This document shows, piece by piece, positions 9,864 to 25,357 of a stretch of 32,000 nt of DNA. The notes below the pieces were generated by a model. It was given only the letters and a program-made list of their open reading frames with translations, had not been told where the DNA came from and ran no database searches. Numbering within the stretch: the first letter of the stretch is position 1; the number at the start of each line of letters is the position of its first letter. Both the position numbers and the translations under genes were made by a program. This DNA comes from Acutalibacteraceae bacterium (GTDB lineage Bacteria; Bacillota; Clostridia; Oscillospirales; Acutalibacteraceae), in assembly GCA_045605425.1 (NCBI GenBank), contig JAZUQA010000002.1, positions 358,715-390,714 of the forward strand, in the 5' to 3' direction.

Positions 9864-9900
9864 AAAAATCAAGGGCAAAAATTCACTGCCCTTGATTTTT
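9864..9900. terminator. Bidirectional terminator between convergent genes
   Basis: AAAAATCAAGGGCA (9864-9877) / TGCCCTTGATTTTT (9887-9900), with an A-run on one side and a T-run on the other. Confidence 0.75.
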
Positions 9901-10781
9901 TAATACGCATAATATTCCGCACCTAAATTTTGGAGCTTTGCTACTCTATCATCACTGTTTGGATGTGTTGAATATAAAGCCTTGAGTAAGCCATTTTCCG
10001 GTTTTGAACACATATGTCTATCCAATACACTTTCTAGAGTTTCCCCGTAACCAATTTGATATGCATACTTATCAGCTATGAATTCATTCTGACGCATAGA
10101 CCACATAAGAAATAACATACAAAATTTTGTCCATAACCAAATGGATACAGTAGACAACCCGCCAAAGATTGTCATAAGAATTGTACCCCAAACACTTTTA
10201 GTACCAATTCCCATTATTGTAAAGAAGCCTGTTATTAACCAGCAAACAACCTTTATTATCAAAAGAATACCGGAAATCATCAGATTCCCACCGCCAATTA
10301 ATAATTGAATTGTTGAATGATGGTATGCGATGTGTCCGAGCTCGTGTGCAAAAACCGCCATAATTTCATTATCTGACAGTTTTAAAAGTCCATCTGTGAC
10401 ACATATGGTTTTTCTTCCTATAGCAAATGCATTTGGTGATTCATCATGTATTATTTTCAAATGTATTTCATCTACCATTGATGGTGTTCTTTTTTTTGCT
10501 TTTTCAAACACTATTTCCAACAAAGGGATTAGTCTAATTTTTATATCTTTACGTTTTATCTCTCTGGCACCGGACATAGCCGCAAGAGTCCATTCTCCCA
10601 CAGGAGACAGGCTAATTAATACTGTTGATAGATAACAACCAACAAGCGGAAGTGCGGTTTCCAATGTTAAACTATACGGATAAAACAAAGCTAATATCAA
10701 AGAAATATTTAAAAGAAAAAATATTAAAGTTCCCAAATTAGATATTCTAAAAATTCTTCCAAGCCTGTGCCAAATATCCAC
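9900..10781 (-). CDS. M48-family (HtpX-like) membrane zinc metallopeptidase
   Basis: HELGHIAYHH (HExxH) plus STHPNSDDRVAKL. Multiple TM helices. GGAGG RBS then a GTG start. Confidence 0.8.
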   Translation of the reverse strand: MDIWHRLGRIFRISNLGTLIFFLLNISLILALFYPYSLTLETALPLVGCYLSTVLISLSPVGEWTLAAMSGAREIKRKDIKIRLIPLLEIVFEKAKKRTPSMVDEIHLKIIHDESPNAFAIGRKTICVTDGLLKLSDNEIMAVFAHELGHIAYHHSTIQLLIGGGNLMISGILLIIKVVCWLITGFFTIMGIGTKSVWGTILMTIFGGLSTVSIWLWTKFCMLFLMWSMRQNEFIADKYAYQIGYGETLESVLDRHMCSKPENGLLKALYSTHPNSDDRVAKLQNLGAEYYAY

Positions 10782-10803
10782 AAAACAGCCTCCTTTTTAG
10801 CCA

Positions 10804-11070
10804 CTAATCAATGAAGTTAAATACATCTTTAAACTTTTCTTTAAAGATTTCAAACACAACTTGCAGAGTTGCTTCATTATCAACACTGATATAACTCTCT
10901 GTTTCATCAGCTACTTCTTCAAGTTGTAGGATAACAACCTCATCAGTTTTATCGGAAACCGGAAGCAAAACCACATATTCTTTGCCACGATAAGGAATGA
11001 GATCAAGGAATTCAAACTCCGCTTCATTACCCTCGTCATCATTTAAAACTATTATATTTTCGTTTTCCAT
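10804..11070 (-). CDS. DUF1292-family small acidic protein
   Basis: The pattern DDEGNEAEFEFLDLIPYRGKEYVVLLPVSD..DEVVILQLEE is characteristic of DUF1292. Confidence 0.7.
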   Translation of the reverse strand: MENENIIVLNDDEGNEAEFEFLDLIPYRGKEYVVLLPVSDKTDEVVILQLEEVADETESYISVDNEATLQVVFEIFKEKFKDVFNFID

Positions 11071-11081
11071 TTTTCCACCTT

Positions 11082-11336
11082 TTAATACAGATACTCATCA
11101 TTCAGCTCAACACCGAGCAATTCAAGTAGAGTATCTTTTTTGTTTTCAATACAAGTTTTCATAGCGGATTTGATACTGTCCATAGAAATGCTGTCAGGCA
11201 GCATAGCTCTCGGAACAGTATGACCGAACATTGCCTTGTATTGTTCTTCGATTTGATAGTATTCTTGATCTATTACAGGTTCGGGAGTATCAAGAAAAGC
11301 ATTCATAAAATCTGAAACCTTTTTATCTATACTCAT
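11082..11336 (-). CDS. putative immunity protein for the HExxH toxin (84 aa)
   Basis: Starts 4 nt after the toxin stop with an AAAGGAG RBS. Small, acidic and helical. The call is positional only. Confidence 0.45.
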   Translation of the reverse strand: MSIDKKVSDFMNAFLDTPEPVIDQEYYQIEEQYKAMFGHTVPRAMLPDSISMDSIKSAMKTCIENKKDTLLELLGVELNDEYLY

Positions 11337-11339
11337 AAG

Positions 11340-12392
11340 TTATCTGCTCCTTTCTAATACCCGAACATATTGGTCGGGTTGGATTGATTCAATAAGTGTT
11401 GAAAACACGCCAAACGCAGTTGGGAAGAAGTTAGCAAGCATTTCAAGTTTTTCCTCACTACCCATAGATGCCTCAAAAAAGTGTGCAAACGCTTCAGCTT
11501 GAAGATTTCCGGAACGAGTCCAATATTCTCTTGAATGCCCGTAACTTCCGTGTAATTGCCCATTAGTGGTTGCATCTATTAAGTCTGAAAAAGAATGTGC
11601 TGAGTCAGACCGTATGCGTGTTAAAAAAGCGTTCTGCCGTTCAGGGGGGAGATTGTTATATAATTGCAATATCCGTTGACCGTCTCGCATTAACGCATTT
11701 CCAAATTCAGGTGTATTTGACAAGTTTCCTTGATAACCCGTTGATGCGTGGTCGATCATATGTGCAAGCTCGTGAAAATATGTAGTACCTGCACCTCTCG
11801 GATTAGACATATCCAATGTCGCATTGTAATAAACACCTCTCCGGTGTCCCTCATAGTTCATCGGTGAGTAATGTGCCGTTTGATTTGACGGATAGTTCGC
11901 ATCTTGTATCAACATTTGATTTGTAAAATGGTCAAATACTCTGCGAACTCTCGTTTCACCGTTTTGGTGTCTTTCAGATATTACATTGAGATAACCTTCA
12001 GGGATATTACCCCTCGTCAACACACCAAGACAATACTGATAGGAAGGTGTTTCACCTGCGGAATATGTCATATTTCTCAGGTTTCGAACAAAGGCATTGT
12101 CTGCGCCCATACTTCCATCTAAGTTAACATTATCATATTCCTGCAAACTTTTTGCAAGCGAACCTATGAATTGTTCGCCCTTGGATAAGATCTTCAAGAT
12201 TTCATTTAAGGCTTTGCTACATTCTTGAACGACATCGCCTAATTCCTTATACTTTTTATCTTTCCATTCGCCATTAAGTTGCTGATACTTTCTCGTCATT
12301 GACGATCTTGTCGTTTCGATGCTTGTAATTGCTGTCTTGATATTATTCCAAGATTGCAATAGCTCAGTTAGATCGGCATTTACCATTCCCAA
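11340..12392 (-). CDS. Polymorphic toxin: WXG100/LXG-like N-terminal domain + HExxH zinc-metallopeptidase C-terminal domain
   Basis: The N-terminal 90 aa are about 60% identical to the N-terminus of the 12630..13496 protein (W-K-D-K-K-Y, QEYDNVNL). The C-terminus has TTYFHELAHMIDH and a downstream EAFAHFFE (gluzincin-like third ligand). Likely TTG start. Confidence 0.75.
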   Translation of the reverse strand: MGMVNADLTELLQSWNNIKTAITSIETTRSSMTRKYQQLNGEWKDKKYKELGDVVQECSKALNEILKILSKGEQFIGSLAKSLQEYDNVNLDGSMGADNAFVRNLRNMTYSAGETPSYQYCLGVLTRGNIPEGYLNVISERHQNGETRVRRVFDHFTNQMLIQDANYPSNQTAHYSPMNYEGHRRGVYYNATLDMSNPRGAGTTYFHELAHMIDHASTGYQGNLSNTPEFGNALMRDGQRILQLYNNLPPERQNAFLTRIRSDSAHSFSDLIDATTNGQLHGSYGHSREYWTRSGNLQAEAFAHFFEASMGSEEKLEMLANFFPTAFGVFSTLIESIQPDQYVRVLERSR

Positions 12393-12434
12393 TATTATCC
12401 TTCCCTTGCGTTATAAGTTTGTAAAGGTCAAGAT

Positions 12435-12617
12435 TTATAATTTAATTCTTCCTTTTCTACTAAAGCAAGGACATTTAATGGTATTTGAAAGAACTTCTGT
12501 GGGTTTGCTTTCATATTTAGCACAACTATCTTTGCATTTTGGAGTTTGAAATTCGCATAAGTCACATTGTGATTTTGCGATAACTACCTCATTTTCTTTC
12601 CAACAAAACTTATCCAT
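12435..12617 (-). CDS. Cys-rich small protein (60 aa), putative immunity or zinc-ribbon protein
   Basis: GGAGGA RBS. Contains C-x2-C-x6-C-x3-C (CDLCEFQTPKCKDSC) plus C5 and CPC. Lies directly downstream of the ART toxin. Confidence 0.5.
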   Translation of the reverse strand: MDKFCWKENEVVIAKSQCDLCEFQTPKCKDSCAKYESKPTEVLSNTIKCPCFSRKGRIKL

Positions 12618-12629
12618 AATATTCCTCCG

Positions 12630-13496
12630 TTACACAAGCATTCTTGCAATAATCGTTCTGTTTCCAAACATGTCTCGTCTTACATCAGTTATTTGTAGCA
12701 TCTGTCCACAATCGAATAATACTTCACTTTCGTAGTGTTGTGCGTGACTTAAATAACCAACATAAGCACCATTCGCTCCTTCAGGAACTGATATTTCATA
12801 TCTGATTTCTCCACCAAACGCATCCTCTCTATTCAGGCTTGTACTCATAAAACCATCATCGCTTATAATGTTACCTATTAGTTCCTCATCGGTTGCATTC
12901 GCATAATTGCCAAGCGAACTACGCGAAGCACCTCTATATACGGTACAAGACTGAGGGATACTGCTTTGACTTAAAGCACTATGTATTAAAGATGCTCTCT
13001 CGTGATTTCCGGCATCAAAATCAGATTCCAATCCTCTTAAAACAGCGTTAATATTAACATATGAAGTGCCTGTATAATCTCTTATGGCTGATCGTTCAGA
13101 AGGCGATAGATTGTCCGACCATTCTTTACCCGCCAATTTTACTGTTGCATTATTATCATTTCCTGACAAGGAATTAGTTGTGTTTGATGCAGGATTAGAA
13201 GTTGGTGGTGGAGTTCCACCGGCAAAATTAACATTCTCATATTCTTGCAAACTTTTCACAAGGAGTGCAACATATTTTTCTCCTTGTAAAAGCGTTTTTA
13301 AGATTGTATTTAACGACTTTGAGCAATCGTTTACTACATCGCCTAAGTCCTTATACTTTTTATCATTCCAACCGTTTCCAAGTTGCTGATATTTTGTAGA
13401 TATTGAAGCTTTTGTTGTTTCGATACTATCTATTGCAGTTTGCATATTCTTTACAGTGTACAATAAAGTATTCAAATCAGAATTAACTACACTCAA
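12630..13496 (-). CDS. Polymorphic toxin: WXG100/LXG-like N-terminal domain + R-S-E ADP-ribosyltransferase domain
   Basis: The C-terminus carries the C3/VIP2-type motifs AIRDYTGTSYVNINAVLRG, TVYRG (Arg), GFMSTSL (S-T-S) and HYESEVLF (E-x-E). The N-terminus has GWNDKKY and QEYENVNF, then a Pro/Thr linker. TTG start after GAGGTGA. Confidence 0.85.
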   Translation of the reverse strand: MSVVNSDLNTLLYTVKNMQTAIDSIETTKASISTKYQQLGNGWNDKKYKDLGDVVNDCSKSLNTILKTLLQGEKYVALLVKSLQEYENVNFAGGTPPPTSNPASNTTNSLSGNDNNATVKLAGKEWSDNLSPSERSAIRDYTGTSYVNINAVLRGLESDFDAGNHERASLIHSALSQSSIPQSCTVYRGASRSSLGNYANATDEELIGNIISDDGFMSTSLNREDAFGGEIRYEISVPEGANGAYVGYLSHAQHYESEVLFDCGQMLQITDVRRDMFGNRTIIARMLV

Positions 13497-13554
13497 AATA
13501 TCACCTCGGATTCATCCATCAATCATAATTCCTTGTTCGTTCTTTTGGGAATTA

Positions 13555-13592
13555 GCCATATACACAAAGGTGTGAACCTCTGTGTATATGGC
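13555..13592 (-). promoter_or_regulatory. Perfect 12-bp hairpin between the ATPase and toxin genes (processing or attenuation element?)
   Basis: GCCATATACACA (13555-13566) / TGTGTATATGGC (13581-13592) with a 14-nt loop. No U-tract follows on the transcribed (minus) strand. Confidence 0.4.
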
Positions 13593-13604
13593 ATATCCAC
13601 ACAT

Positions 13605-16600
13605 TTAATCAAATAGTTTCTTCACTTCATTTGCAGACGGTGTAATATACGGTTTCATTTGGAATGTGTTTTTAACTCCATCCGTGAAGTAAACCGTATT
13701 ATCTCTTAAGCCTGCAACTGAAACATTTTCAATAAGGTTATCAGCATCGTTAGCGCCAAGGGAGAATATGATACGTTCGGGGAATTTGTTAAGAATATTC
13801 TCGCCATAATACATACATTCTCTTACCGTTTGATACTCGAGCGATGTAACAACGAAATGAATACCGAATCCTGAACCATCTGCAATCATCTTAAGAAGCT
13901 TTTCACCAACTGACATATTATCGTCATTACCTCTACTTGATGAGAAGTTGGCGATAGCATTCATTGCTGCAATAGGATCAACTGCAATATCCTTTTCAGG
14001 TTCTTCACTGATAAACTCACTTTCATCAATGTAGTCACCTTTAAACATTGATTTGACAATATCCAAGAACTGTAGATTTTTAATAATAACAAAAATTACA
14101 TCATCGCTATTTTGCTTTTTCCATGCTTGATAGTTTTGATACACTTCATTTATAAAGTTGATAATATCTCCTCTGTTACTTGCAATTTTAAAATTATCAC
14201 TACAATTTGAAATCGCATCATAAAAATCTGCAGAACTATCGTCACCAACAAGAGAATCACCATCTATGCAATATACTGTTGCATTCTGATTAAGCAAAGC
14301 TGATATCATATAGTTGTTTGACACAGTATTTGCCATTCGCTCATTTGAACCGCAAATTAGCAAGTTGTGTTTCTTCTTTTTGTCGATTGTAATTGAAAAC
14401 GGTGGTGCAACTTTGATAAGAGTACCCATATGTATTTTTGCTGGCAATTCTGATGTGCGAGTAATAGAATTCTCAGTGAAATAATCAGACAATTGTGTTG
14501 TTCTTCCGCCTTCAAATGTTTGCAGTTTATACGGAGATTCTGAGTATGTTTCGCTTATCAACTTCAGATATTCTCGTTGCGTATTATCATCACAATATGC
14601 AGCTCTGAATCCTATATTGGATTGCTCTGTATAATCCAAATTCATTACTGCTGTTCCTATAGGTCCTTTCATCATTGCAAGAGCCTTAGAATCGTTTTCA
14701 TCTGAGAATAGATACCTCGCATCGTTTTCACCACATTTCAAACCTATACGAATTCGCATCTGTTCAATAGTACCGTGTGATAACGTAAGGTCAGAAATAA
14801 CTTTTGTGGACTGTGTTGCCATTAACAAATGAATACCAAAAGCACGACCCTCTGTAACAATTCTCTTTGTAAGTTCCGCACAATTCATTGCAACTTTACG
14901 ATTTGTAGAGTCATTAAATAAGATTTGGAATTCATCCATAATCACTAAAATTCTTGGCAAAGCTTGTCCTGTTACCTGTGTATACCCTTTAAGACTAGTT
15001 TGTCCGGCATCTTTAAAAAGAGAACCTCTATGTTCCATTTCAGCAACCAGATTTTCAAGAATGCTTTCGCCGAATTCCTGCATCGCATCCAAAGCAAGAA
15101 GCTGAATATGCGGCAGCTTAACAGATTCATAAACTTTAAACTCTGTACCACTCTTAAAGTCCATAAGATACAAATGTAGTTGTTCAGGACTGTAGTGAAG
15201 CATACTACTCATAATAAGAGTATGTAGCAATGTTGATTTACCAGAACCAGTAGCACCAGCAATAAGACCATGATGAGATGAGCCCTCTCCGATAGTAATA
15301 TTGATAATGCTATCACCATCACCAACACCAACCGGTATTTTCAAAGATTTCGACGATTCAAATGAGAATAAATCTTCAGCTATGATATCTTTAAAAGACA
15401 ATCCTTGTTTTTTGATAGTTTCGCTCTTTTCGACATATTCTTTGACAAAGCTATCAATTGTGTTGAAGGATAACGAAGCAGGAGTATTAATTTGCAGATT
15501 ATATGGAAGTAATCCATAATGTCCGTCTTTATAATCAATTGACGCACAATATTTTGAAATCTGCTCCAAGCGTTCATCAATACTTTCATAGCGAGAGAAG
15601 GTAATGTTGGGATTGTAACAAATTATAGTGAAAACACCACATTTGTTTCCGTTTCTTAGAATATTGGTCAGTAAATCCAAGCATCTTCCATCCATACCAC
15701 TTGGGAAATCATATAAAAGCAATAAAGTAATAGGTTCTGCTCGATTTGGGGTGTTTAAATTATAATCAAGGATATCCTTATATCTATTGCCTAGTTTTTC
15801 CTGTATAAACTCATCAATTTGAGCGTTAATTTTTTGAAGCCTGTCATAAATCTGTTCTTGACTTGTATATATCTTTTGGTCAAAGGTTTCAGATGAGCGT
15901 TTTCTGAAATCTAAAAACGGAATTATGCTATTACCCCTTTGTTCGCAATCAGCAATACATACATTTACTTTCGTTATAGGCATAAATGAGAGAAAACTCC
16001 AAATTACATGGTGTGTAAAATCAAGCATGCCTTTATTATTTTCTTCCGGACAGTTTAATAATAAATTAAACGAATTTCTCAAATCGAAAGTTAGCGGCAA
16101 TTCAACAAAAGAAGAATTTTCTGTTTCTGATTTCTTCTCTGCACCAAACCTATCCACTATAGTTTGATAGCCAATACTATCTGAGAAAATATCAGATGGA
16201 TACATTACATTTCCAAGTGTAACAAGAGATGGGAACAAAGTGTTTATTTCGGGAACCTGTGCATATGCTTTTTCATAGCTTTTCATCATTTCACATATTT
16301 GCTCAATATGGGCATCAAGTTCCATTGAATCTCGAGCGTCAACAAGTTTTCTGATTAACGGAGAGAAAGCAATACCTCTATTTTTAATTCCTTCAAATAT
16401 AAGCATGTATTTACTGAAAAATTTAGCAAACTCAACTTTTTCAGGCATAGAATGATATAAAATTGGCAGACCTCTCAAAGAGAAATTTTCTCCGTTTTGG
16501 GTTATTACCGTTGATAAATCAACAACTGACTGTAGTGCTTGTTCATATTCTCTTGAACGAGAACCATCAAAATTAGGCAAGTAAGATATCAAAGTATATA

Positions 16601-17990
16601 TTCCGCATTTACTTCCGTTTCTTAAGATGTTTCTTAATTCACTGAGGGTTCTTTCATCAAAGCCTTTAGGAAAGTCAAATAATACAACCAGTTCAACATT
16701 AAGAGTGTAATCAGGAGTATTTCGTGCATAATCAAATATGTTCTCATACTGGTTACCTAATTTATCTTGCAAAATATTTTCAATTTTCTCATTAAGTTTT
16801 CTTACTTTTTCTACCACTTCATCTTTACTAATATATATTTTTTCTCCGAATAACTCGGGGAGTTTTTTCTTAGCATCAAAAAAAGGAGAAATACTATTGC
16901 CTCTATTTTCTGGGTCAACAATGGTATATGTTAGTTTCTCTACAGGACATGATGATAGAAAGCTATACATCATAGAATGAAGTAAGCTTTGAACTACAGA
17001 ATTATTACTGTTATCATTTTTTATCATCCAAACAGGTGCATTGCGAGTGGATGTCATTATTGGGAATCTTATTGCACCATCATAAATAAGTCTTGAGCAT
17101 TTTTCTTTAATTATCGAGGCTACAATTTTTGACTGAACAAAATATTCAACTGGATACTCAACATAGTACATATTCATAACTTCATCTAAAATTTCGTTAG
17201 ATGAGTTTACTTTGTACACGGATTTTGAGTAGTTTGACATTATTGCAGCTAAATAGTCAACAAACTCATCCGGTAACACATCATCAAGTGATGTGCATAT
17301 TCTATCAGCTACTTTATCAAGAGTTGCGAGATGGTTATTCTCAAAATTGGATATCTCTGTTTTATGTCTTTCTACCATGATTCCGCGCTGCGTGAAGTAT
17401 GTTTCTTTTAATGAGGCAAGATTCTCCTCGGTTATCGGTGGTAAAACTTCTTCAATTTCCTTAACAAAAGCAGCAACTGTATTGCGAAGCACAATTAGTT
17501 CTTCATAATCTTTTTTTCTCTGACTGGAAAAAAGATAATTCAAACCATTTATTAAACCAGGGAGAATATCTTCCGAATACTTTTTGAAAAGCGAATTAAA
17601 AGAAGTCTTGATTTCATCCAATGCAGAGAAATAATCAGAAGTATCTGTATACTTCTCACTTGTAGTGTCAGCTAACAATTCCTCTTTCTTTTTCTTTGTT
17701 TTCACATAATACTTATCAACTTTCGACAATTTCTCATCCAGCTTGTCTATTTCGGAAAGTATTCTTTTTGCATCAGCTATAGTCTGTCTTGATTTTTTCT
17801 GCACATTAGAGCAATTATTCTTGTATGTGCTGTCTAAGCTTGATAAAGCATTACTGTGTTTGTTTAACAGCAGTCTTTTGTCCTTATCATAATTTGTTTG
17901 AGTTGTATTTATCAGTGTTTCAGAAGAATCTGCAAACTTATTCAAATCAGAAACAAGTGCAATTATTTCGCTTTGTGCTAACGCTTTCAT
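13605..17990 (-). CDS. FtsK/SpoIIIE-family (EssC/EccC-like) multi-domain ATPase, apparently soluble (1461 aa)
   Basis: One canonical module: Walker A GATGSGKST, Walker B ILVIMDEFQ, and FGIHLLMATQ. Two upstream paralogous degenerate modules (VDPENRGNSISPFFD..LRNILRNGSKCGIYTLISY and ADCEQRGNSIIPFLD..LTNILRNGNKCGVFTIICY). One downstream degenerate module (LLICGSNERMA, FGIHFVVTS). The N-terminal ~300 aa are coiled-coil-like. No hydrophobic TM stretch or FHA-like region is visible. Confidence 0.85.
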   Translation of the reverse strand: MKALAQSEIIALVSDLNKFADSSETLINTTQTNYDKDKRLLLNKHSNALSSLDSTYKNNCSNVQKKSRQTIADAKRILSEIDKLDEKLSKVDKYYVKTKKKKEELLADTTSEKYTDTSDYFSALDEIKTSFNSLFKKYSEDILPGLINGLNYLFSSQRKKDYEELIVLRNTVAAFVKEIEEVLPPITEENLASLKETYFTQRGIMVERHKTEISNFENNHLATLDKVADRICTSLDDVLPDEFVDYLAAIMSNYSKSVYKVNSSNEILDEVMNMYYVEYPVEYFVQSKIVASIIKEKCSRLIYDGAIRFPIMTSTRNAPVWMIKNDNSNNSVVQSLLHSMMYSFLSSCPVEKLTYTIVDPENRGNSISPFFDAKKKLPELFGEKIYISKDEVVEKVRKLNEKIENILQDKLGNQYENIFDYARNTPDYTLNVELVVLFDFPKGFDERTLSELRNILRNGSKCGIYTLISYLPNFDGSRSREYEQALQSVVDLSTVITQNGENFSLRGLPILYHSMPEKVEFAKFFSKYMLIFEGIKNRGIAFSPLIRKLVDARDSMELDAHIEQICEMMKSYEKAYAQVPEINTLFPSLVTLGNVMYPSDIFSDSIGYQTIVDRFGAEKKSETENSSFVELPLTFDLRNSFNLLLNCPEENNKGMLDFTHHVIWSFLSFMPITKVNVCIADCEQRGNSIIPFLDFRKRSSETFDQKIYTSQEQIYDRLQKINAQIDEFIQEKLGNRYKDILDYNLNTPNRAEPITLLLLYDFPSGMDGRCLDLLTNILRNGNKCGVFTIICYNPNITFSRYESIDERLEQISKYCASIDYKDGHYGLLPYNLQINTPASLSFNTIDSFVKEYVEKSETIKKQGLSFKDIIAEDLFSFESSKSLKIPVGVGDGDSIINITIGEGSSHHGLIAGATGSGKSTLLHTLIMSSMLHYSPEQLHLYLMDFKSGTEFKVYESVKLPHIQLLALDAMQEFGESILENLVAEMEHRGSLFKDAGQTSLKGYTQVTGQALPRILVIMDEFQILFNDSTNRKVAMNCAELTKRIVTEGRAFGIHLLMATQSTKVISDLTLSHGTIEQMRIRIGLKCGENDARYLFSDENDSKALAMMKGPIGTAVMNLDYTEQSNIGFRAAYCDDNTQREYLKLISETYSESPYKLQTFEGGRTTQLSDYFTENSITRTSELPAKIHMGTLIKVAPPFSITIDKKKKHNLLICGSNERMANTVSNNYMISALLNQNATVYCIDGDSLVGDDSSADFYDAISNCSDNFKIASNRGDIINFINEVYQNYQAWKKQNSDDVIFVIIKNLQFLDIVKSMFKGDYIDESEFISEEPEKDIAVDPIAAMNAIANFSSSRGNDDNMSVGEKLLKMIADGSGFGIHFVVTSLEYQTVRECMYYGENILNKFPERIIFSLGANDADNLIENVSVAGLRDNTVYFTDGVKNTFQMKPYITPSANEVKKLFD

Positions 17991-18024
17991 GGTTGTCTTC
18001 CTTTCTTAGGAATTTTTAATTGAA

Positions 18025-19179
18025 TTATTTTTCTTCTAATTCAAAATTACATTTACCTTCACAATCTTTCCCAAACCCAACAACTAATGAAGTGGTAACC
18101 TGTAACGGATAACTGAAAATTTCTACCATTTCACCGCCTATGGCAGGGTCACTTGTATTGCAAATAAGTGTATATTGTTTAAGATTGTTTAACAGACGAG
18201 GAATATACTCTTCGTTGTTAGAATTTAAAATGTCAATAATAAGTTTTATTCCTATACTTGTTATAAAGTTAATATCAACGGAAATACCAGGTTCAAATTT
18301 TACGCTCTCAACATTTTCTTGATTTGAATATACGTGATGATTTGCTTCAACACGACCTGAAAGGTCACCACTACCCAATGCACACTTATAACAAGGCATG
18401 TTTTTGTTGGGAAGGTGATAAAAAATTTCTCCAGCATACGCTCTTTCCCAAAATCCGATAGATATAAAAGCTGCGTCAAAATAAATTGCGATTTTATTTG
18501 CATAAACATCAGCTGTTCTGTTATCTCCACAACCGACAAATATTGTCTCAAAAGGAACGCACATCTTATCAAGAATATCCTTGGGAATATTCTGAATAAT
18601 TCCGCCAAAAGTCTTAATATTTGCTTTTGGATTAATATTCAAAATCTTTCTTTTAAGTGCATTTACCTTTAAATCTCCAACATCTTCAATGCCACATTGA
18701 TGGCGACATACATTGTGGTACTCAAGAGTGTCTGCATCACATAAAACATACTTTTCAACACCTGCTCGGGCCAATTCCATAGCAACTAAACTGCCAACAG
18801 AACCACAACCGATAATTACAGCACATTTTTTCTTCATAATATCTGTTTCAAGAATACCTTTATTTCTTGAAAAAATGCTCTGATATAAACCATACGATTC
18901 GGTTATTACTTTCTCTCCACACCAAAAGAATTCGATACTTTCATTAGTAATTACACCACAGAAACCATCAATGACAGGGGCACTATCTTCAGGAAGAATA
19001 TCACCAAGATACTCACCTTTGTCGGATAATTCATTGGGAAACACATTGAAAATTCCAGTATCTTCAAAGTATTTACCATATAATTTCATACACTGTTTAT
19101 TGTGCAGTTGTTCTTCGGAAATAAAAACGGTAAGAGGGATATCTTCACCAAAGAAATTTTTAGGGCGCTTAATATTCAT
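18025..19179 (-). CDS. E1-like (ThiF/MoeB/UBA-type) adenylyltransferase
   Basis: Rossmann motif AVIIGCGSVGSLVAMELARAGV, then LCDADTLEYHNVCRHQ (the D.D....N..RQ signature) and PCYKC. ATG at 19179 lies 4 nt after the JAB stop. An extra domain of about 110 aa sits at the N-terminus. Confidence 0.8.
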   Translation of the reverse strand: MNIKRPKNFFGEDIPLTVFISEEQLHNKQCMKLYGKYFEDTGIFNVFPNELSDKGEYLGDILPEDSAPVIDGFCGVITNESIEFFWCGEKVITESYGLYQSIFSRNKGILETDIMKKKCAVIIGCGSVGSLVAMELARAGVEKYVLCDADTLEYHNVCRHQCGIEDVGDLKVNALKRKILNINPKANIKTFGGIIQNIPKDILDKMCVPFETIFVGCGDNRTADVYANKIAIYFDAAFISIGFWERAYAGEIFYHLPNKNMPCYKCALGSGDLSGRVEANHHVYSNQENVESVKFEPGISVDINFITSIGIKLIIDILNSNNEEYIPRLLNNLKQYTLICNTSDPAIGGEMVEIFSYPLQVTTSLVVGFGKDCEGKCNFELEEK

Positions 19180-19183
19180 ATAA

Positions 19184-20188
19184 TCAGTCCTCGTTTCTGT
19201 TAAATCTAATAATTTTAATAACAGAGTCAACAACTCCGGATTGCTTTCTTGCTTTTATTTTTATACCGCTGTCTTTTTCACGTTCAGCTTTTGCTCTACC
19301 ATATGCTTCGGTAAAAAGACCTCTTTGATACTTATAGCATTTATTATCATAGGAAAGCGTAATACTTTCATCATCAACAATTAACATAAAGTACAACTTT
19401 GTTGTTTTATCAATAGTTTCTTGATAAACTGTAAGATAGTTGTTTTCAAGTGAAATAGCAGTTTCAATGTTAAGTGTCTCTGCCATAAAGGTTAAATCAT
19501 CTACGATTTCATCAATTAAGTCTTCTTGGATCTCCTCATTAACAGGTGACTCACTTGTTTGTATTTCTGAACACTCATAATCTTTTAATTTCGGTAAGAT
19601 GAATTTCATAAATGATTCCAAACTTACTGATTTATGGTATCCATCATTAATATTTCTGGTTCTATTCGATGAACCAAGAAGATTCTCCATAATAGTGCCA
19701 AAACGTTCTTGTGTTTTAAATTTCAGTAGATCATCTGGAATTAAATTATCTCCAACATCATATTCGATTTTTTTATACCTACAGGGGTAAGCAACATGAT
19801 ACATTGTGATTCTAAAGTTAGGGTCAATATTTACCAATGCGGAAATCGCACCTTCATTTCGCATAGAAGCATATTTGAAGTTTGTACCATCATCAGTTGA
19901 TGAGAACTGGTCAAAAGACCCCGGGTGACGATGCCACAAGCCTATCAATGTAAGTTGCTTGTCATACAAATTAGCTATTTTGTTTATCAAATGTTGCGTA
20001 TATTTTTGATCATATTCAAAATAAGCAACCTCAAAAACTGATTTTGGGCCGGGGTCTATAGCTTCAATTATGTACCACGTATCATCTTGCACGGTTCCTA
20101 AAAACAAACCACCGGTTTCTGTTTTAATTTTTTCAGTTGTTTCTGCCAAAACAGAGGTGTATGCTCTATTTGAAAAAACTACTCTCAT
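19184..20188 (-). CDS. JAB/MPN+ (JAMM) metalloisopeptidase with an unknown C-terminal domain
   Basis: ETGGLFLG (Glu) plus LWHRHPGSFDQFSSTD, which equals H-x-H-x7-S-x2-D. GGAGG RBS before ATG 20188; the upstream alternative start in the ORF track is unlikely. Confidence 0.85.
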   Translation of the reverse strand: MRVVFSNRAYTSVLAETTEKIKTETGGLFLGTVQDDTWYIIEAIDPGPKSVFEVAYFEYDQKYTQHLINKIANLYDKQLTLIGLWHRHPGSFDQFSSTDDGTNFKYASMRNEGAISALVNIDPNFRITMYHVAYPCRYKKIEYDVGDNLIPDDLLKFKTQERFGTIMENLLGSSNRTRNINDGYHKSVSLESFMKFILPKLKDYECSEIQTSESPVNEEIQEDLIDEIVDDLTFMAETLNIETAISLENNYLTVYQETIDKTTKLYFMLIVDDESITLSYDNKCYKYQRGLFTEAYGRAKAEREKDSGIKIKARKQSGVVDSVIKIIRFNRNED

Positions 20189-20266
20189 ATTATTAAACCT
20201 CCAGCCTAAAAGTAAAACCTCCAAACTCTCATATACTTAGCAAGAGAGTTTGAAGGTTTAGTAATT

Positions 20267-20821
20267 TTAATAATTACCTTCCATTGCGACATCGTCGCCG
20301 ATTTCACCGTTTAACCACATCTCGCAAAGAATAATCCACTTGCAAGCCCAACTCAATGCTGAAGCAGCAGAAGTAGACTGTGTCTTATCTCCTTTAAAAT
20401 ACTTCGGGTCAGCGGTACAAATAAAATATTCTTCATTACGCCCGAAATGATCTTTATAGATGTGTGGAAGACCAAGTCCAAATCCTCTGCGACAAACTTC
20501 ATCATAGTTATTGTTATAAGTATCCATAACAATAGGCATCATTTTGTCAGCTACATCTTTAAGTCTTGGACTAAGTGGAAGGATTTGGACAGTTCCACCA
20601 TACTCATATTCACTGCCAACATGAGGATGTGAATTTTTATAAATAAGCATTATATCCCACACCATGCCACCAGCTCCGGTAGGCTGAACCTTTCCTCTCC
20701 AATATAATCTACCAGAACCATCCTGCAACTGGTTTATGGTAAATGAAGGGAAGAATTTTTTCATTGCGGCAACTTCCATCTGATAAAGTTGAGGGTCACT
20801 TTGATACCAATAATAAGCCAT
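20267..20821 (-). CDS. E2-like (UBC-fold) protein, prokaryotic type
   Basis: N-terminal helix, then RLYWRGKVQP...VWDIMLIYKNSHP (E2-like beta-meander). LPHIYKDHFGRNEEYFIC resembles an HPN-type loop followed by the catalytic Cys. The gene sits directly before JAB and E1. Confidence 0.55.
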   Translation of the reverse strand: MAYYWYQSDPQLYQMEVAAMKKFFPSFTINQLQDGSGRLYWRGKVQPTGAGGMVWDIMLIYKNSHPHVGSEYEYGGTVQILPLSPRLKDVADKMMPIVMDTYNNNYDEVCRRGFGLGLPHIYKDHFGRNEEYFICTADPKYFKGDKTQSTSAASALSWACKWIILCEMWLNGEIGDDVAMEGNY

Positions 20822-20832
20822 CGTGTGCCTCC

Positions 20833-21006
20833 TTATGCCAATTTTCCATCAGGAACCTGAATTCCTGAAAGTCCCTGGTCCATAGCATCATCTTTCTTTT
20901 CGACTTCACCACTTGCTGTAACCACAACAGGTTCACCTGTACGTAAAGCTTCAGCCAATGCTCTTCTTCTTGCAGCAACAGCATCATTGTTTACATTGTT
21001 ATCCAT
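20833..21006 (-). CDS. small protein (57 aa, below ORF-track cutoff) in the position a Ubl gene occupies in Bil-type operons
   Basis: GGAGGT RBS 9 nt before ATG 21006. Translation: MDNNVNNDAVAARRRALAEALRTGEPVVVTASGEVEKKDDAMDQGLSGIQVPDGKLA. Stop TAA at 20835-20833, 11 nt before the E2-like start. Confidence 0.55.
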   Translation of the reverse strand: MDNNVNNDAVAARRRALAEALRTGEPVVVTASGEVEKKDDAMDQGLSGIQVPDGKLA

Positions 21007-21030
21007 TTTTATATACCTCCAACACGAATA

Positions 21031-21918
21031 TTATGCAGCGTTATTTCCTGTAGCTGAAAAGCTTCTAATAATTTCACCGTTTTCATTAATTGAAGCAACA
21101 CAGCCTCTAAGAACAGCTTCTGCTCCTTCTTCGCCCTTTTCCTGAACCATACGGGCATAAGAGTTATCAGCAAGTTCGCTCTTCTGATTAAGAAGTGTTT
21201 CAAGATCAACACCTCTGTTCTGATTACGAATCATTGTGTATTCCATATAGTCAGCCATCTGCTGGAGAGCAGCTTGGTCTGATTCAATAAAGCCGGAAGT
21301 TCTCTTAATATAAATAATGTATTCAATTGTATTCTTTACAGTATAGTAGAAGCTCTGAACTATAAGTTTTAAAATTCCCCAAATGATTGAGAGAACTGTG
21401 AGGAATCCGAACTGACCAGAAATAGCGATTTTGATTACGTCCCAAAGTAATGAGAAGAAATATTTTGCTGCGCTTAAGAATACGCCACCAATACCGGCAC
21501 CAACAAGGCCCATCATTGCAGCACTACCTGCATCTCCGCTTTCTGCTCCGAGGATTATACCTATAATCAATCCGGTAACTATACCAACAAGAGATACAAT
21601 AAACTGGAACATAATTTTCGCTTTATTTTTCTTAAGGTCTTCAACGTTTGCTGCAACTAATTGCTGACAGCAGTCATAACAAATGGCTTTATTCTTATAC
21701 TGGTCATCATTTACACCATAGTTATCAAAACAATCTTGACATATGTATTTGCCACATCTTGCACATTTAGCTACTGCAGGTTCATCTTTGTGATAGTAAC
21801 ATGCAGGGCCATTGAATGACGGTTTTGCATTTGCAGGCGGAGTGAATGTGGGTGTTGGGGGTGTAAAGGTAGGAACAGCATCAGTTCCTGCATTAGTTTT
21901 CATTTGCTCGTTATCCAT
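21031..21918 (-). CDS. Membrane protein: Pro-rich N-terminus, B-box/zinc-ribbon Cys cluster, about 3 TM helices, cytoplasmic tail
   Basis: CYYHKDEPAVAKCARCGKYICQDCF...AICYDCC. Hydrophobic helices IMFQFIVSLVGIVTGLIIGIILGA, MMGLVGAGIGGVFLSAA and FLTVLSIIWGILKLIV. AGGAGG RBS. Besides the distal M48 peptidase, this is the only polytopic membrane protein of the operon. Confidence 0.7.
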   Translation of the reverse strand: MDNEQMKTNAGTDAVPTFTPPTPTFTPPANAKPSFNGPACYYHKDEPAVAKCARCGKYICQDCFDNYGVNDDQYKNKAICYDCCQQLVAANVEDLKKNKAKIMFQFIVSLVGIVTGLIIGIILGAESGDAGSAAMMGLVGAGIGGVFLSAAKYFFSLLWDVIKIAISGQFGFLTVLSIIWGILKLIVQSFYYTVKNTIEYIIYIKRTSGFIESDQAALQQMADYMEYTMIRNQNRGVDLETLLNQKSELADNSYARMVQEKGEEGAEAVLRGCVASINENGEIIRSFSATGNNAA

Positions 21919-21955
21919 GTTTTTATCCTCCTAATTAATTAACCTTAGTTACAGG

Positions 21956-22225
21956 TTAAAATTTAACTTTGTTGTACTGGTCTAAAGATTGAGCCAGTTT
22001 TTCTAATTTAGGCAAAGCTGCATTTAAAGTATCAATAGGTGTTGCTGTTAATCTAGCTATTTGCTGCATTAACATATTGAACTGAGCAGCTTTAGCATCA
22101 TCCCAATTAGATGTTGCAGACATTCCCGATTTGATACCACTACTTATTCTTTCAATATCACGAATGGTATTGGAAATATCTTTTTTCATTTCCCTGATTG
22201 TTTCAGGAGAGGCTTTTACTGCCAT
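21956..22225 (-). CDS. WXG100-like small helical protein (89 aa)
   Basis: AAGGAGG RBS. Central NWDDAKAAQF (W-x-D) and C-terminal DQYNKVKF-stop. Paralogous to the other W-x-D proteins in the operon. Confidence 0.7.
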   Translation of the reverse strand: MAVKASPETIREMKKDISNTIRDIERISSGIKSGMSATSNWDDAKAAQFNMLMQQIARLTATPIDTLNAALPKLEKLAQSLDQYNKVKF

Positions 22226-22238
22226 TTAAATACCTCCT

Positions 22239-22520
22239 TTAAAAATTAACATTTTCGTATTCGCCTACAGCCTGTAGTAAATCGTTAAGTTTTACCATAC
22301 ATTCCTGAAGTTCGGAAATCGGTTTTGTTAATGCACTACAGCATTCTTCAACGATACCACCTAAAGCAGCGTATTTTTGGTCTTTCCAACCACCAGAACC
22401 TGCTTGTTGATAACTTCGCTGTAAACTACGTGATGCTGATTCCAACTCGTGAATTGATGTTTTGCAACAACCAATGCCACCTTGTATAGCAGCGCTTTCA
22501 ACAGATACACCACTTGCCAT
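22239..22520 (-). CDS. WXG100-like small helical protein (93 aa), stand-alone copy of the toxin N-terminal domain
   Basis: AGGAGG RBS before ATG 22520; the ORF track extends to 22574. GGWKDQKYAALGGIVEECCSAL and a C-terminal GEYENVNF-stop align with the toxin N-domains. Confidence 0.7.
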   Translation of the reverse strand: MASGVSVESAAIQGGIGCCKTSIHELESASRSLQRSYQQAGSGGWKDQKYAALGGIVEECCSALTKPISELQECMVKLNDLLQAVGEYENVNF

Positions 22521-22574
22521 TTTTGGAAACCTCCTGACTTGATTTTTATATTGCAAGGCTTTCGCCCAAAACAA

Positions 22575-23321
22575 TTACAAAGACGTACTCAAATACTCTT
22601 CAATACTTGAGATGCAATTATCTATAGCACTCTTGTTGCCCTGTGCTTTTTCTGATGAATTGCTCTCAAATTTTTTTGTCGCAGCTGTATATGCAGACAA
22701 ATCGCTCTCAACTCTATTGAAAGTTGATTTCATTCTTTCTAGTTTAACCTTAATTTTATTGCATCTGTTTTTTTGTATAGCTCGTTCATTTTCGCATTGT
22801 GATTTTTTTGACTTACAGTCTGATATTTCTTTTTGTAGTTGTTGTTTCTTTTCCTCTGAATGTCTGACTTCATCTTCCAATTGTTCACACCGCATTTCAC
22901 ACTGAGATACCTGTTGCTCCAATGCATTTATTTGCTCTTGAATTGCTTGTCTCGTTTCATCGTCTTCTGTTTCCGCAAGACGAGCACGTAAAGAAGCTAT
23001 CTGTGAATTCAAAGAAATTATTTGTTGTCTTAAAGTGGCAATATTATTTTTGATTTGGGGTATCCTTTTTATTAAAGAATTATATTCATTAGTTGCTTGA
23101 TTTGCTTTTAATTCGAGTTGCTCGATTTGCTTGCTTAATTCTTCTATTTCACGCTCTAATTGTGTGATTTCTCCTTTTGTTCTATTAATTTGTATCTTAC
23201 ACTCCGACGTTACACTGTCAGCCTGATTAGTTGCTCTTAATGAGATGCCGTTTATATCTGTTTGAAAAGTAGATAACGCATCTTTAACTGTCTTTAATGC
23301 TTCTGTTGATACATCTACCAT
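22575..23321 (-). CDS. Cys-rich coiled-coil protein (248 aa)
   Basis: Long heptad-like Q/E/L-rich sequence. The N-terminal helix VDVSTEALKTVKDALSTFQTDINGI resembles the toxin N-termini. Nine Cys residues are scattered in the coil. Confidence 0.65.
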   Translation of the reverse strand: MVDVSTEALKTVKDALSTFQTDINGISLRATNQADSVTSECKIQINRTKGEITQLEREIEELSKQIEQLELKANQATNEYNSLIKRIPQIKNNIATLRQQIISLNSQIASLRARLAETEDDETRQAIQEQINALEQQVSQCEMRCEQLEDEVRHSEEKKQQLQKEISDCKSKKSQCENERAIQKNRCNKIKVKLERMKSTFNRVESDLSAYTAATKKFESNSSEKAQGNKSAIDNCISSIEEYLSTSL

Positions 23322-23331
23322 AGTAAAGCTC

Positions 23332-23559
23332 CTAATATTTTTCTGATGCTATTTTCTCAAACTTTTCGATTGAAGAACAACATCTGTCCGCAGTGACCAT
23401 AACATCTTTTGATTGATTTGCAATCTCAGTTATAGAAGAGGATAATTCAGCATATTTTTCATCCTTCCATATAGCCGAAGCCTTTGAAATTCCTGTACTT
23501 AGCTTTTTTATTGAAGATTGAAAAACATGCATTTCTTTTCTGATATTTGCGTATCCCAT
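23332..23559 (-). CDS. WXG100-like small helical protein (75 aa; alternative GTG start at 23571)
   Basis: GGTGAG RBS before ATG 23559. Contains IWKDEKYAEL (W-x-D-x-K-Y), a vicinal CC, and ends ...KIASEKY. Confidence 0.65.
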   Translation of the reverse strand: MGYANIRKEMHVFQSSIKKLSTGISKASAIWKDEKYAELSSSITEIANQSKDVMVTADRCCSSIEKFEKIASEKY

Positions 23560-23560
23560 A

Positions 23561-23905
23561 TTACTCACCACTCACTTGATCCATTTTTCCATTTAACCAA
23601 CATTCATCTAATTGATACGGAAAAACATCTAATTGTCTTATCGTATAGTGTGTATTAGGGTTATAGTCGAAAAATAAAATTAAAGACATATAGGTATTCC
23701 AAGACATTACTCTTTTTAAACTTTCAATAGAGTTATATGTTTGTCTCGACACACCAATCGCATTAGCAACTTCGTCTTGTGTAGCATTTGCAGCACCCCT
23801 CAATGCGGGTAACGCTTTTGTCAAACTGTTAATTAAACGATCTTTGTCTTCTTTGCTAAAATGCCAATAGTCCATATAATCTTTTCTTTTTCTTATCTGG
23901 TTCAT
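23561..23905 (-). CDS. XRE-type HTH regulator, first gene of the operon (114 aa)
   Basis: ATQDEVANAIGVSRQTYNSIESLKR is a helix-turn-helix. The start lies 25 nt from the left inverted repeat of the recombinase segment. Confidence 0.7.
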   Translation of the reverse strand: MNQIRKRKDYMDYWHFSKEDKDRLINSLTKALPALRGAANATQDEVANAIGVSRQTYNSIESLKRVMSWNTYMSLILFFDYNPNTHYTIRQLDVFPYQLDECWLNGKMDQVSGE

Positions 23906-23930
23906 TTATATATCCTTCAACCAACGTATA

Positions 23931-23959
23931 ATTTTCGTAGAGTATTCTCCTTGACGAAA
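23931..23959. repeat. Left 29-bp inverted repeat (IR-L)
   Basis: ATTTTCGTAGAGTATTCTCCTTGACGAAA is the exact reverse complement of 25358-25386. Confidence 0.9.
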
Positions 23960-23963
23960 ATTC

Positions 23964-24000
23964 AAAGACACAACCCTTTATACTTAGAGTTGTGTCTTTT
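23964..24000 (-). terminator. Hairpin terminator after the recombinase gene
   Basis: AAGACACAAC (23965-23974) / GTTGTGTCTT (23989-23998). On the minus strand it is followed by TTTGAATTTT. It sits just inside IR-L. Confidence 0.6.
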
Positions 24001-24032
24001 TATTGACCATATTTTTGACGGGAAATAGAAAT

Positions 24033-25157: not shown

Positions 25158-25301
25158 TATAAAGTTCCTCCGTTTCTTTACATTGACGGATTAATGACCA
25201 TAAATGCAACTTAAATTCGTCAAAACAACTAATTTGTTCATTGTTGTTTTGCTTATAATGAATAAAAATTGTATTTTTATTCAACAAAATAATTGCACAT
25301 A

Positions 25302-25330: not shown

Positions 25331-25357
25331 TATTTTAACTAATTATTGGAATTTTTC

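Follow-up and report, generated by a model that had tools for sequence, protein, structure and literature searches.

Why would an operon that otherwise resembles a type VII secretion locus encode a complete ubiquitin-like conjugation cascade, and does the combination represent one system or two? The operon in question lies in a 32,000-nt stretch of the genome of an Acutalibacteraceae bacterium (GenBank assembly GCA_045605425.1, contig JAZUQA010000002.1), which in its full length we refer to as the window; it occupies positions 9900-23905 and is transcribed from 23905 to 9900. Judging by the conservation of sequence and gene order, we conclude that the cluster is in all likelihood a single conserved system in which a type VII-like motor is joined to a ubiquitin-like cascade. 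The system consists of 11 core genes, is phase-variable and resides on a mobile island.

The operon and its genes

A sequence-only reading of this DNA had reported 17 co-directional genes with strong ribosome-binding sites (RBSs) and gaps of mostly 4-45 nt. All 17 open reading frames (ORFs) at 9900-23905 do lie on the minus strand, and a GGAGG/AGGAG-type site precedes most of the starts. When the starts are re-derived from the RBSs (W75, 75 aa; W93, 93 aa; JAB, 334 aa; E1, 384 aa), gaps of 0-45 nt are obtained, with two exceptions, namely an 11-nt overlap, which becomes a 1-nt gap if W75 begins at its ATG, and 108 nt ahead of the ADP-ribosyltransferase toxin. A search of the coding strand within the operon found no convincing intrinsic terminator. 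Save for one label discussed below, the gene identities are upheld by profile searches (Pfam, and PADLOC for the E2). In the order of transcription, the genes are:

23561..23905, minus: XRE-family helix-turn-helix regulator, 114 aa, first operon gene (Pfam HTH_3 2.5e-5, HTH_31 1.6e-5)
23332..23559, minus: W75, 75-aa W-x-D helical hairpin, probably a divergent WXG100 protein by its sequence (W-domain hidden Markov model (HMM) 2.4e-22)
22575..23321, minus: CC248, 248-aa coiled coil with 8 Cys (solely coiled-coil matches in Pfam and NCBIfam)
22239..22520, minus: W93, 93-aa W-x-D protein, C-terminal end YENVNF (W-domain HMM; EsxA/EsxB profile match)
21956..22225, minus: W89, 89-aa WXG100-like W-x-D protein, C-terminal end YNKVKF (Pfam WXG100 4e-6)
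21031..21918, minus: BboxTM, 295 aa, Zn finger and about three transmembrane (TM) helices (Pfam zf-B_box 1.1e-4, below the cut-off; hydropathy)
20833..21006, minus: s57, 57-aa candidate ubiquitin-like modifier, end VP-x-GKLA (conserved C-terminus; fusions and tandem repeats)
20267..20821, minus: E2-like conjugating enzyme, 184 aa, His120 and Cys135 (PADLOC E2 1.9e-9)
19184..20188, minus: JAB/JAMM metallopeptidase, 334 aa (Pfam Prok-JAB 1.4e-7; PADLOC JAB 6e-13)
18025..19179, minus: E1-like adenylating enzyme, 384 aa (Pfam ThiF 7.8e-24; PADLOC E1-E2 8.8e-25)
13605..17990, minus: EccC/EssC-type soluble ATPase, 1461 aa (Pfam FtsK_SpoIIIE 2.5e-30, residues 880-1062 only)
12630..13496, minus: toxin 1, W-x-D domain, S/T/N-rich linker and C-terminal ADP-ribosyltransferase (ADPrib_exo_Tox 2.6e-32)
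12435..12617, minus: 60-aa Cys-rich ORF after the ADP-ribosyltransferase toxin (position only)
11340..12392, minus: toxin 2, W-x-D domain and HExxH metallopeptidase, weakly M91-like (WXG100 7.9e-6; Peptidase_M91 0.034)
11082..11336, minus: 84-aa protein, probable toxin 2 immunity protein (always directly after this toxin type)
10804..11070, minus: DUF1292 protein, 88 aa, accessory (Pfam DUF1292 1.7e-15)
9900..10781, minus: M48 (HtpX-like) membrane zinc peptidase, HELGH (Pfam Peptidase_M48 4e-24)

Conservation of the system across genomes

So do these genes belong together? ATPase homologues were aligned, one genome per species was scanned, and iterated HMMs were derived from the window proteins. 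The ATPase scan gave 50 species-level loci in gut and rumen Clostridia, with a few metagenome-assembled genomes (MAGs) carrying other labels; the MAG labels include Faecalibacterium, Lachnospiraceae, Oscillospiraceae, Ruminococcus and Butyricicoccus, and a cultured carrier among the loci is Faecalibacterium prausnitzii ATCC 27768. Five of the 52 genome-scan loci (L001-L052) are cut by contig ends, leaving 47 informative ones. The E1, E2 and JAB genes are kept alongside the ATPase and the W-x-D proteins, a retention that the sequence-only reading had named as a test against chance insertion, in 45 of these 47, in the order W75, coiled coil, W93, W89, BboxTM, s57, E2, JAB, E1, ATPase, M48, with zero to three W-domain toxins and their small downstream genes between the ATPase and M48. 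Across the loci, identity to the window ATPase falls from 95% to 34% and locus GC content spans 22-50%. In all, 132 loci show the conserved gene order.

The reverse test took the E2 as the query on metagenomes and counted a gene only where the contig leaves room for it; every E2 in these loci is at least 74% identical to the query, so that the reach of this test is shorter than that of the ATPase scan. The E2-anchored loci contain s57 (76/76), BboxTM (66/66), JAB (63/63), E1 (60/60), the ATPase (59/59), the W proteins (60/60), the coiled-coil protein (58/58) and, in 36 of 47 cases, M48. Every E2 homologue whose context was inspected sits in this operon.

As for the individual genes, CC248 is conserved at its position in 37 genome-scan loci, with variants of 463-594 aa, BboxTM is found in 43 and M48, the conserved last gene, in 27, while XRE homologues occupy the same position in 15 and the DUF1292 protein occurs in 8. 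Of the two informative loci that lack the E2, L046 is a decayed locus. In the other, L041, the four upstream genes abut the ATPase, and BboxTM, s57, E2, JAB, E1 and M48 are jointly absent, suggesting that these six genes behave as one module. In no other intact locus do the W genes adjoin the ATPase without the tagging module as they do in L041 (7744-13681). In five chromosomal loci, M48 directly follows the ATPase and is itself followed by other genes, some of them housekeeping ones; this adjacency suggests that the toxins are optional cargo inserted between two core genes. By this comparative evidence, the M48 peptidase and BboxTM are core parts of the system and the toxins are its optional cargo, all of which the sequence-only reading had missed.

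A minimal, toxin-free copy (L039) comes from a termite-gut MAG labelled Phycisphaerales. The GC content of the system and its flanks is uniform there, at about 50%, which leaves either a real transfer beyond Bacillota or mis-binning.

The ATPase and the W-x-D proteins

What kind of ATPase is at the centre of this system? The best matches among solved structures are EccC of Thermomonospora (4NH0; 3.8e-34), EccC5 (2e-27) and B. subtilis YukB (5e-21), whereas FtsK reaches only 5e-12 in the same search, the best EccC/EssC matches thus being about 20 orders of magnitude better. The NCBIfam models EssC (6.5e-35) and EccCa (2e-34) are matched at about 120 bits, far under the equivalog cut-offs of 509-778, so that the protein is to be considered a relative rather than an orthologue. 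An exact-sequence look-up of the window's own ATPase matched no recorded contig. The absence of TM and FHA regions, noted from the sequence alone, is confirmed, with no 19-residue window reaching a hydropathy of 1.6 and no Pfam FHA match. The protein comprises a helical N-region (residues 1-290), two domains (291-600 and 601-875) that are duplicates of each other (hhalign E 2.4e-46), a single recognisable P-loop domain (880-1100) with one Walker A motif, GATGSGKST, at residue 912 of 1461, and a C-terminal domain. In the NCBIfam EssC model, it is the section beyond the matched ATPase domain that aligns with the C-terminal third. Profile searches of solved structures gave no usable match for residues 1-870 and 1100-1461, and hhalign detects no link between the duplicated domains and the active P-loop domain. 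The possibility that the duplicated region (291-875) consists of degenerate ATPase folds therefore finds no support in these searches. A 1767-aa variant of the ATPase (L137, 4780-10083) has an extra AAA+ domain after about residue 405, in a locus that also contains an s57-E2 fusion.

The three small W proteins and the N-terminal domains of the toxins form one family, in which the Trp is present in 147 of 148 domains and an Asp in 146 of 148, yielding W-x-D instead of W-x-G. W89 scores 27.4 bits against the Pfam WXG100 cut-off of 27.3, and the toxin 2 N-domain matches the same family at 7.9e-6. The best solved structures for the family profile are EsxA and EsxB, aligned end-to-end with W on W, although these matches are marginal (E 0.015-0.09, the former value for W89 against EsxA, 2VS0, also end-to-end). 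No NCBIfam model matches W75 or W93, and W89 and the coiled-coil protein have only spurious or generic coiled-coil matches in that database. Taken together, these alignments suggest that the small W-x-D proteins are divergent WXG100 proteins. An idea that we entertained, that the Lys of a W-x-D-x-K motif is a universal acceptor of conjugation, is weakened since the Lys is found in only 94 of 148 domains, the residue being Gln throughout the W89 class.

The toxins combine a W domain of about 94 aa, a low-complexity Ser/Gly/Asn-rich linker and a variable C-terminal domain, which can be an ADP-ribosyltransferase, a colicin-DNase/WHH domain, a papain-fold glutamine deamidase, a C39-like peptidase, an HExxH peptidase or one of several unassigned domains. 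Toxin 2 has orthologues in at least 10 loci. The gene for the 84-aa protein directly follows a 339-353-aa W-toxin of the toxin 2 type in 10 of the 10 genome-scan loci that carry it, a pattern that makes this protein the probable cognate immunity protein of toxin 2. The 60-aa Cys-rich ORF, for which L001-L052 contain no homologue, is by its position a possible immunity protein. A constant W N-domain, interchangeable C-domains and a cognate downstream gene are the signature of exported interbacterial toxins.

The conjugation enzymes and a candidate modifier

The three enzymes of the cascade retain their catalytic motifs in the alignments. The E1 matches the solved structures of UBA5 (5e-16), MccB (6e-15), Cap2 (1e-11) and MoeB (3.5e-11), and consists of an unassigned N-terminal domain of about 105 aa followed by a ThiF fold with a CxxC zinc site. 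The E...HxH...SxxD motif of the JAB peptidase is intact in 46 of 46 homologues; its NCBIfam matches are 6A-MBL cap2_3 (1.3e-14) and Cap3 (7e-4), and its extra C-terminal domain of about 200 aa is missing from several relatives. For the E2, the profile scan of the window protein gave no Pfam match, and its profile found no meaningful solved-structure match and no NCBIfam model; it does match eight PADLOC E2 models, the best at 1.9e-9, and its homologues carry the precomputed annotation Pfam PF26395 E2-CBASS. The E2 alignment shows an invariant PH-x-Y and, 14 residues on, I-C-T, His120 and Cys135 being invariant, and the AlphaFold model (pLDDT 72) has a helix followed by a four-strand meander.

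What, then, would these enzymes conjugate? An appealing candidate is the product of the 57-aa ORF, a probable modifier whose role was overlooked in the sequence-only reading. Its alignment comprises a near-invariant A-R-R-R-A-L-A-E-A-L-R-x-G-E-x-V-V-V-T segment and the C-terminal I-Q-V-P-D-G-K-L-A. Most orthologues end exactly at the invariant GKLA; about 12 of 40 genome-scan orthologues have 2-4 unconserved residues past it (e.g. KED, RED, SSEV), and an extra tail is seen in 28 of 78 metagenome copies. In one lineage, within otherwise standard operons, s57 is fused in-frame to the E2 (VPDGKLA/SGFYWYQ, the slash marking the junction), and in three proteins (P0403, P0410 and P0436) a tandem array of two or three s57 units, all with a PGKLA end, directly precedes the E2 domain. 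Other proteins have an extra N-terminal domain fused, and there s57 stays at the very C-terminus. An HMM search of 1.84 billion representatives found only 63 clusters of the family, and at least 1000 contigs are on record for one s57 variant. Plasmids searched by tblastn for a tandem s57-E2 protein gave no match.

A conserved end, variable tails, head-to-tail repeats and fusion to an E2 are the genetic hallmarks of ubiquitin-like modifiers that are released by a peptidase. We therefore consider it probable that s57 is the conjugated modifier of the E1/E2/JAB set. In its fold, s57 would be quite distinct from ubiquitin. The AlphaFold model (pLDDT 78) predicts helix, strand, strand, helix, strand, with a three-stranded sheet and a free tail; it contains no beta-grasp and has no Foldseek match, including to ubiquitin, ThiS and MoaD. 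The hhalign probability for a relationship with ubiquitin is 0.2% and nothing was obtained with Pup, and NCBIfam contains no s57 model.

Two further observations concern s57 relatives. In the distant loci L030, L050, L051 and L052, the s57 N-terminus holds a second copy of an h-x-V-P-x-G-x-h-A motif followed by acidic residues, which may be the remnant of a tandem-repeat ancestor. In addition, a 634-aa protein (P0416) has an s57-like unit (VPDGKLA/GGG) between a vWA domain and a zinc ribbon, with an end that by eye appears TIR-like; such a unit suggests that s57 may serve other conflict systems too.

Membrane components

The membrane protein that the sequence-only reading labelled a zinc ribbon is better described as having a probable binuclear Cys/His finger, whose eight ligands (C40, H43, C52, C55, C60, C63, C80 and C83) are invariant and show cross-brace spacing, C-x2-H-x8-C-x2-C-x4-C-x2-C-x16-C-x2-C. 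Similarity to the B-boxes of TRIM28 and TRIM21 is detected only at E 0.15-0.3, and searches of solved structures and NCBIfam gave no significant match and no model, respectively. The C-terminal domain contains an invariant NGEIIR and, in most of the main clade, ends in F-A-A. Since BboxTM is RING-like and is gained and lost with s57, E2, JAB, E1 and M48, we propose it as a candidate membrane anchor or E3-like adaptor. The M48 peptidase, with an intact HELGH motif and four hydrophobic helices, is among the genes absent from L041.

An invertible switch on a mobile island

How might such a system be controlled? Immediately upstream of the operon lies an invertible element with its own recombinase:

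23928..25389: invertible switch bounded by 32-nt inverted repeats (23928-23959 and 25358-25389)
24033-25157, minus: tyrosine recombinase gene, enclosed by the inverted repeats
23964-23999, minus: terminator of the switch, facing the operon
25302-25330, plus: promoter-like site, near-consensus, facing away from the operon

Inversion would turn the promoter of the switch toward the XRE gene, so that the window represents the OFF state. The switch inverts in nature, as two MAGs (L005 and L006) are 99% identical save for an inverted 1468-bp segment. Of 70 loci, 29 have a recombinase homologue upstream, which may point either way.

The operon is carried by a mobile island that begins right after the transfer-messenger RNA (tmRNA) gene, a classic integration site, and the other end of which lies beyond the window. 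The remaining features of the window are as follows:

4482-4946: SmpB gene
5745-6098: tmRNA gene, tag DNNTVLKAA
7608-8966, plus: ORF of 452 aa without a Pfam match, lying where the window is richest in AT (28.6% GC)
9221-9861 and 30128-31513: DUF6809 and TnpV genes and a MobA/VirD2-type relaxase gene, by which the island looks mobilisable
25735-29590, minus: gene for a 1012-aa protein matching eukaryote-type RNA-dependent RNA polymerase (Pfam PF05183, 1.9e-15), overlapped and followed by a 286-aa ORF without a family match

The RNA-dependent RNA polymerase gene, of a family that is unusual in bacteria, may represent a separate system on the same island. A phage origin of the system was considered and rejected, only 2 of 2.9 million viral contigs carrying it: the ATPase query found none and the E2 query these two. 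The two contigs (L139 and L140) are classed as viral in IMG/VR; in L139, the W, coiled-coil and B-box genes were not detected upstream of s57.

A model and its alternatives

With due reserve, we lean towards the view that the locus encodes phase-variable, type VII-like toxin export that is controlled by conjugation of s57. Under this model, a type VII-like export motor would have acquired a dedicated ubiquitin-like conjugation cascade. In the ON state, the promoter of the switch would drive the XRE gene and the operon. W75, W93, W89 and the coiled-coil protein would pair with each other and with the W domains of the toxins, in the manner of EsxA dimers or the bundles of LXG toxins with their helpers. 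JAB would trim s57 after GKLA, E1 would adenylate Ala57, and s57 would then pass to Cys135 of E2 and on to a lysine in a substrate or in one of the system's components, with the RING-like BboxTM in the membrane serving as anchor or E3-like adaptor and JAB also reversing the mark. The mark might control whether the soluble ATPase assembles at the membrane or, alternatively, which substrates are selected, and the M48 peptidase could process a membrane-bound component or the cargo. The toxins would be delivered against competing bacteria, the downstream immunity genes protecting kin. A more specific form of the model, in which export is tag-dependent and the new s57 family, maybe with BboxTM as E3, licenses substrates or the motor, is tentative and in our estimate doubtful; to our knowledge, tag-dependent protein export is known for no secretion system.

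Several considerations weigh against the export model. The ATPase is devoid of a membrane anchor, no channel-forming component was identified, and EssA, EssB, EsaA and YukD-like parts were not found in the ORFs scanned. Five chromosomal loci have no toxin in cis, and if the Phycisphaerales label of L039 is right, that host has a different envelope. The top Foldseek matches of the E2 model are UBC, UEV and RWD proteins, but with E >= 0.3 they are not significant, and the zf-B_box score of BboxTM, 22.7 bits, is under the Pfam cut-off of 24.1, for which reason the B-box label is tentative. The candidate acceptor Lys of W-x-D-x-K occurs in only 94 of 148 domains. Finally, an s57-like unit is embedded in the vWA ... 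TIR-like protein P0416, and the CARF, vWA, PP2C and kinase genes that neighbour plasmid relatives of the ATPase are typical of intracellular conflict systems.

These last points bear directly on an alternative, also left open by the sequence-only reading, that we consider unlikely but worth stating in full, namely that nothing is exported and the locus is an intracellular conflict system, for instance one of anti-phage abortive infection or an addiction module, in which the ATPase senses or remodels an invader component, the W-toxins are effectors with targets in the producing cell itself, and s57 is conjugated either to license the system or to mark proteins of the invader, as in CBASS (an antiphage signalling system based on cyclic oligonucleotides) or Bil. 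Such a reading draws on the proximity of E1 and JAB to Cap2/Cap3 and the 6A-MBL anti-phage proteins, the solubility of the ATPase, the plasmid relatives beside CARF, vWA, PP2C and kinase genes, the s57-like unit in the TIR-like protein, the mobile island with its phase switch, and the minimal loci without a toxin. It is at odds with the interchangeable toxin C-domains on a constant WXG100-like N-domain accompanied by at least one cognate downstream gene, and with the grouping of the ATPase with secretion rather than defence ATPases; moreover, the presence of the system on only 2 of 2.9 million viral contigs provides no evident phage link. Still less can be said for a chance juxtaposition, i.e. 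insertion of a CBASS-like cassette into an unrelated toxin locus resembling a type VII secretion system (T7SS), with the two halves independent, which we hold to be extremely improbable. L041, with W genes and ATPase but no module, and the proteobacterial relatives of the ATPase-WXG pair, which also lack the module, speak in its favour, but the same order persists over 34-95% ATPase identity and 22-50% GC, in 45 of 47 and 59 of 59 loci, the s57 search of the full library gave only 63 clusters, and each E2 homologue with inspected context lies in this operon. Conservation of order across loci so diverged effectively excludes a chance insertion.

Could the enzymes instead act on something other than s57? 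They might modify the C-terminus of a larger protein of the system, for instance the F-A-A end of BboxTM, with s57 as an adaptor or regulator. The conservation of the BboxTM C-terminus (NGEIIR-x-F-A-A) in most of the main clade and the apparent absence of a beta-grasp fold in s57 are compatible with this possibility, as is the activity of Cap2 on a protein without the ubiquitin fold (bioRxiv 10.1101/2022.03.31.486616). We nevertheless regard it as improbable given the tandem s57 repeats and the s57-E2 fusions with exact GKLA boundaries; the variable tails would make little sense if GKLA were not a reactive terminus exposed by processing, and in the distant clade L050-L052 the GKLA of s57 is conserved but the BboxTM tail is not. 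A different role for s57 itself, as the precursor of a microcin C-like antibiotic that an MccB-like E1 would nucleotidylate at the C-terminus and the locus would export, is suggested by the match of the E1 to MccB (6e-15), the approximately 105 N-terminal residues that both proteins have before the adenylation domain, and the fact that s57 is a small ribosomal product. The MccB pathway needs a terminal Asn, however, whereas s57 ends in Ala; furthermore, the system always includes a JAB peptidase and an E2 in which Cys and His are invariant, some lineages have s57-E2 fusions, and a Pfam scan of the window ORFs revealed no MccC/MccE-type genes, so that we attach very little credence to this scenario.

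If the export model is correct, its implications would be substantial. The system is common in gut Clostridia of humans and animals and would be a major unstudied weapon in the competition within gut communities, toggled by DNA inversion. Ubiquitin-type conjugation would, for the first time, be found integrated into a secretion machine, which could shed light on the retention of an unconjugated ubiquitin-fold protein by most type VII systems. As for s57, it would be a new ubiquitin-like modifier without the ubiquitin fold. The poly-repeat and E2-fused forms of s57 parallel polyubiquitin and bear on the evolution of such systems. The proposal is directly testable because modified lysines would be expected to retain a Leu-Ala remnant after digestion with trypsin, and a cultured host is available.

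Relationship to known systems

How does this locus relate to what has been described? The sequence-only reading knew of no described system with this composition, and neither profile searches nor full-text literature searches for the combination found one; the literature on the gut taxa and on 6A-MBL yielded nothing relevant. The types T7SSc-j of Bacillota have been defined with ATPases described as membrane-bound, and ThiF and JAB are part of none of them (Garrett et al. 2024, PMC11217815). Conversely, the E1/E2/JAB operon families 6a-6e include none with FtsK or WXG genes (Iyer et al. 2006).

The tagging enzymes have relatives in type II CBASS (Cap2/Cap3) and the related 6A-MBL system, which possess no beta-grasp modifier and the E1, E2 and JAB of which are homologous to those described here. 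The conjugated substrate likewise lacks the ubiquitin fold, Cap2 acting on a non-ubiquitin-fold protein (bioRxiv 10.1101/2022.03.31.486616) and s57 being predicted from its sequence and model to be one, and here too JAB would both process and reverse the mark. The differences are that E1 and E2 are separate proteins in the present system, that Pfam and PADLOC detect no CD-NTase, metallo-beta-lactamase or nucleotide-activated effector, and that the substrate would be a dedicated 57-aa protein, which also occurs as tandem repeats like polyubiquitin. The Bil/Bub systems (families 6c-6e; Iyer et al. 2006) share the full modifier/E1/E2/JAB logic and multi-copy modifier proteins, and in type II BilA a conserved C-terminal residue is followed by variable residues that need trimming (PMC10557695). 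Their modifiers, however, are beta-grasp proteins ending in Gly, whereas s57, with its predicted helix and small sheet, ends in Ala and shows no detected similarity to them, and they have no link to a secretion-type ATPase. With the Pup-proteasome there is a functional analogy only, in that a small non-beta-grasp tag is combined with a large ATPase whose helical N-region could read it; PafA and Dop are glutamine-synthetase-like and not homologous to the enzymes of the present cascade. Links of YukD-like proteins with E1/E2 operons, and of B-box domains with membrane peptidases, have reportedly been described.

On the secretion side, the similarities to T7SSb (Ess) include a P-loop ATPase of the EssC/EccC family, small WXG100-like proteins whose genes open the locus, and polymorphic toxins with a helical N-terminal targeting domain and at least one putative downstream immunity gene. 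Unlike its T7SSb counterpart, the ATPase is free of FHA domains and TM helices, and the motif is W-x-D as opposed to W-x-G. EssA, EssB and EsaA, noted as missing in the sequence-only reading, indeed have no Pfam match in the 27 scanned ORFs of the window, and neither has YukD, so that none of these components, including a YukD/EsaB-like ubiquitin-fold protein, is detected here.

The closest fit is with a group mentioned in a table footnote as "mobile versions of T7SS", in which solo WXG genes accompany a YueA-like ATPase with activity confined to its middle domain (Zhang et al. 2012, PMC3482391). The ATPase is homologous to a protein of the Caballeronia plasmid pSBC2-5 (tblastn 3e-60, HMM 6e-104); the plasmid ATPases have a single Walker A motif mid-protein and no membrane segment by hydropathy, the Helicobacter copy being borderline, and the plasmid WXG proteins match the W-domain HMM at 3e-11 and 5e-7. 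The neighbours of the ATPase gene on the Helicobacter plasmid include genes for an HNH endonuclease and a SUKH (SMI1/KNR4) protein. The plasmid loci differ in having none of s57, E2, JAB, E1, BboxTM and M48; genes for CARF, vWA, PP2C and kinase proteins are found there instead. The ATPase of the present system has an extra helical N-region and the duplicated domain. The features by which the mobile T7SS were characterised (a soluble ATPase, one active domain, solo WXG genes) fit our locus, although the family was never formally defined, and we know of no experimental study of it. The plasmid homologues of the ATPase and WXG proteins are encoded without the tagging module. The recruitment of s57, E2, JAB, E1, BboxTM and M48, and s57 itself, appear to be undescribed, whereas the ATPase and the W proteins, as far as their homology can tell, belong to a noticed but unstudied lineage of mobile type VII systems.

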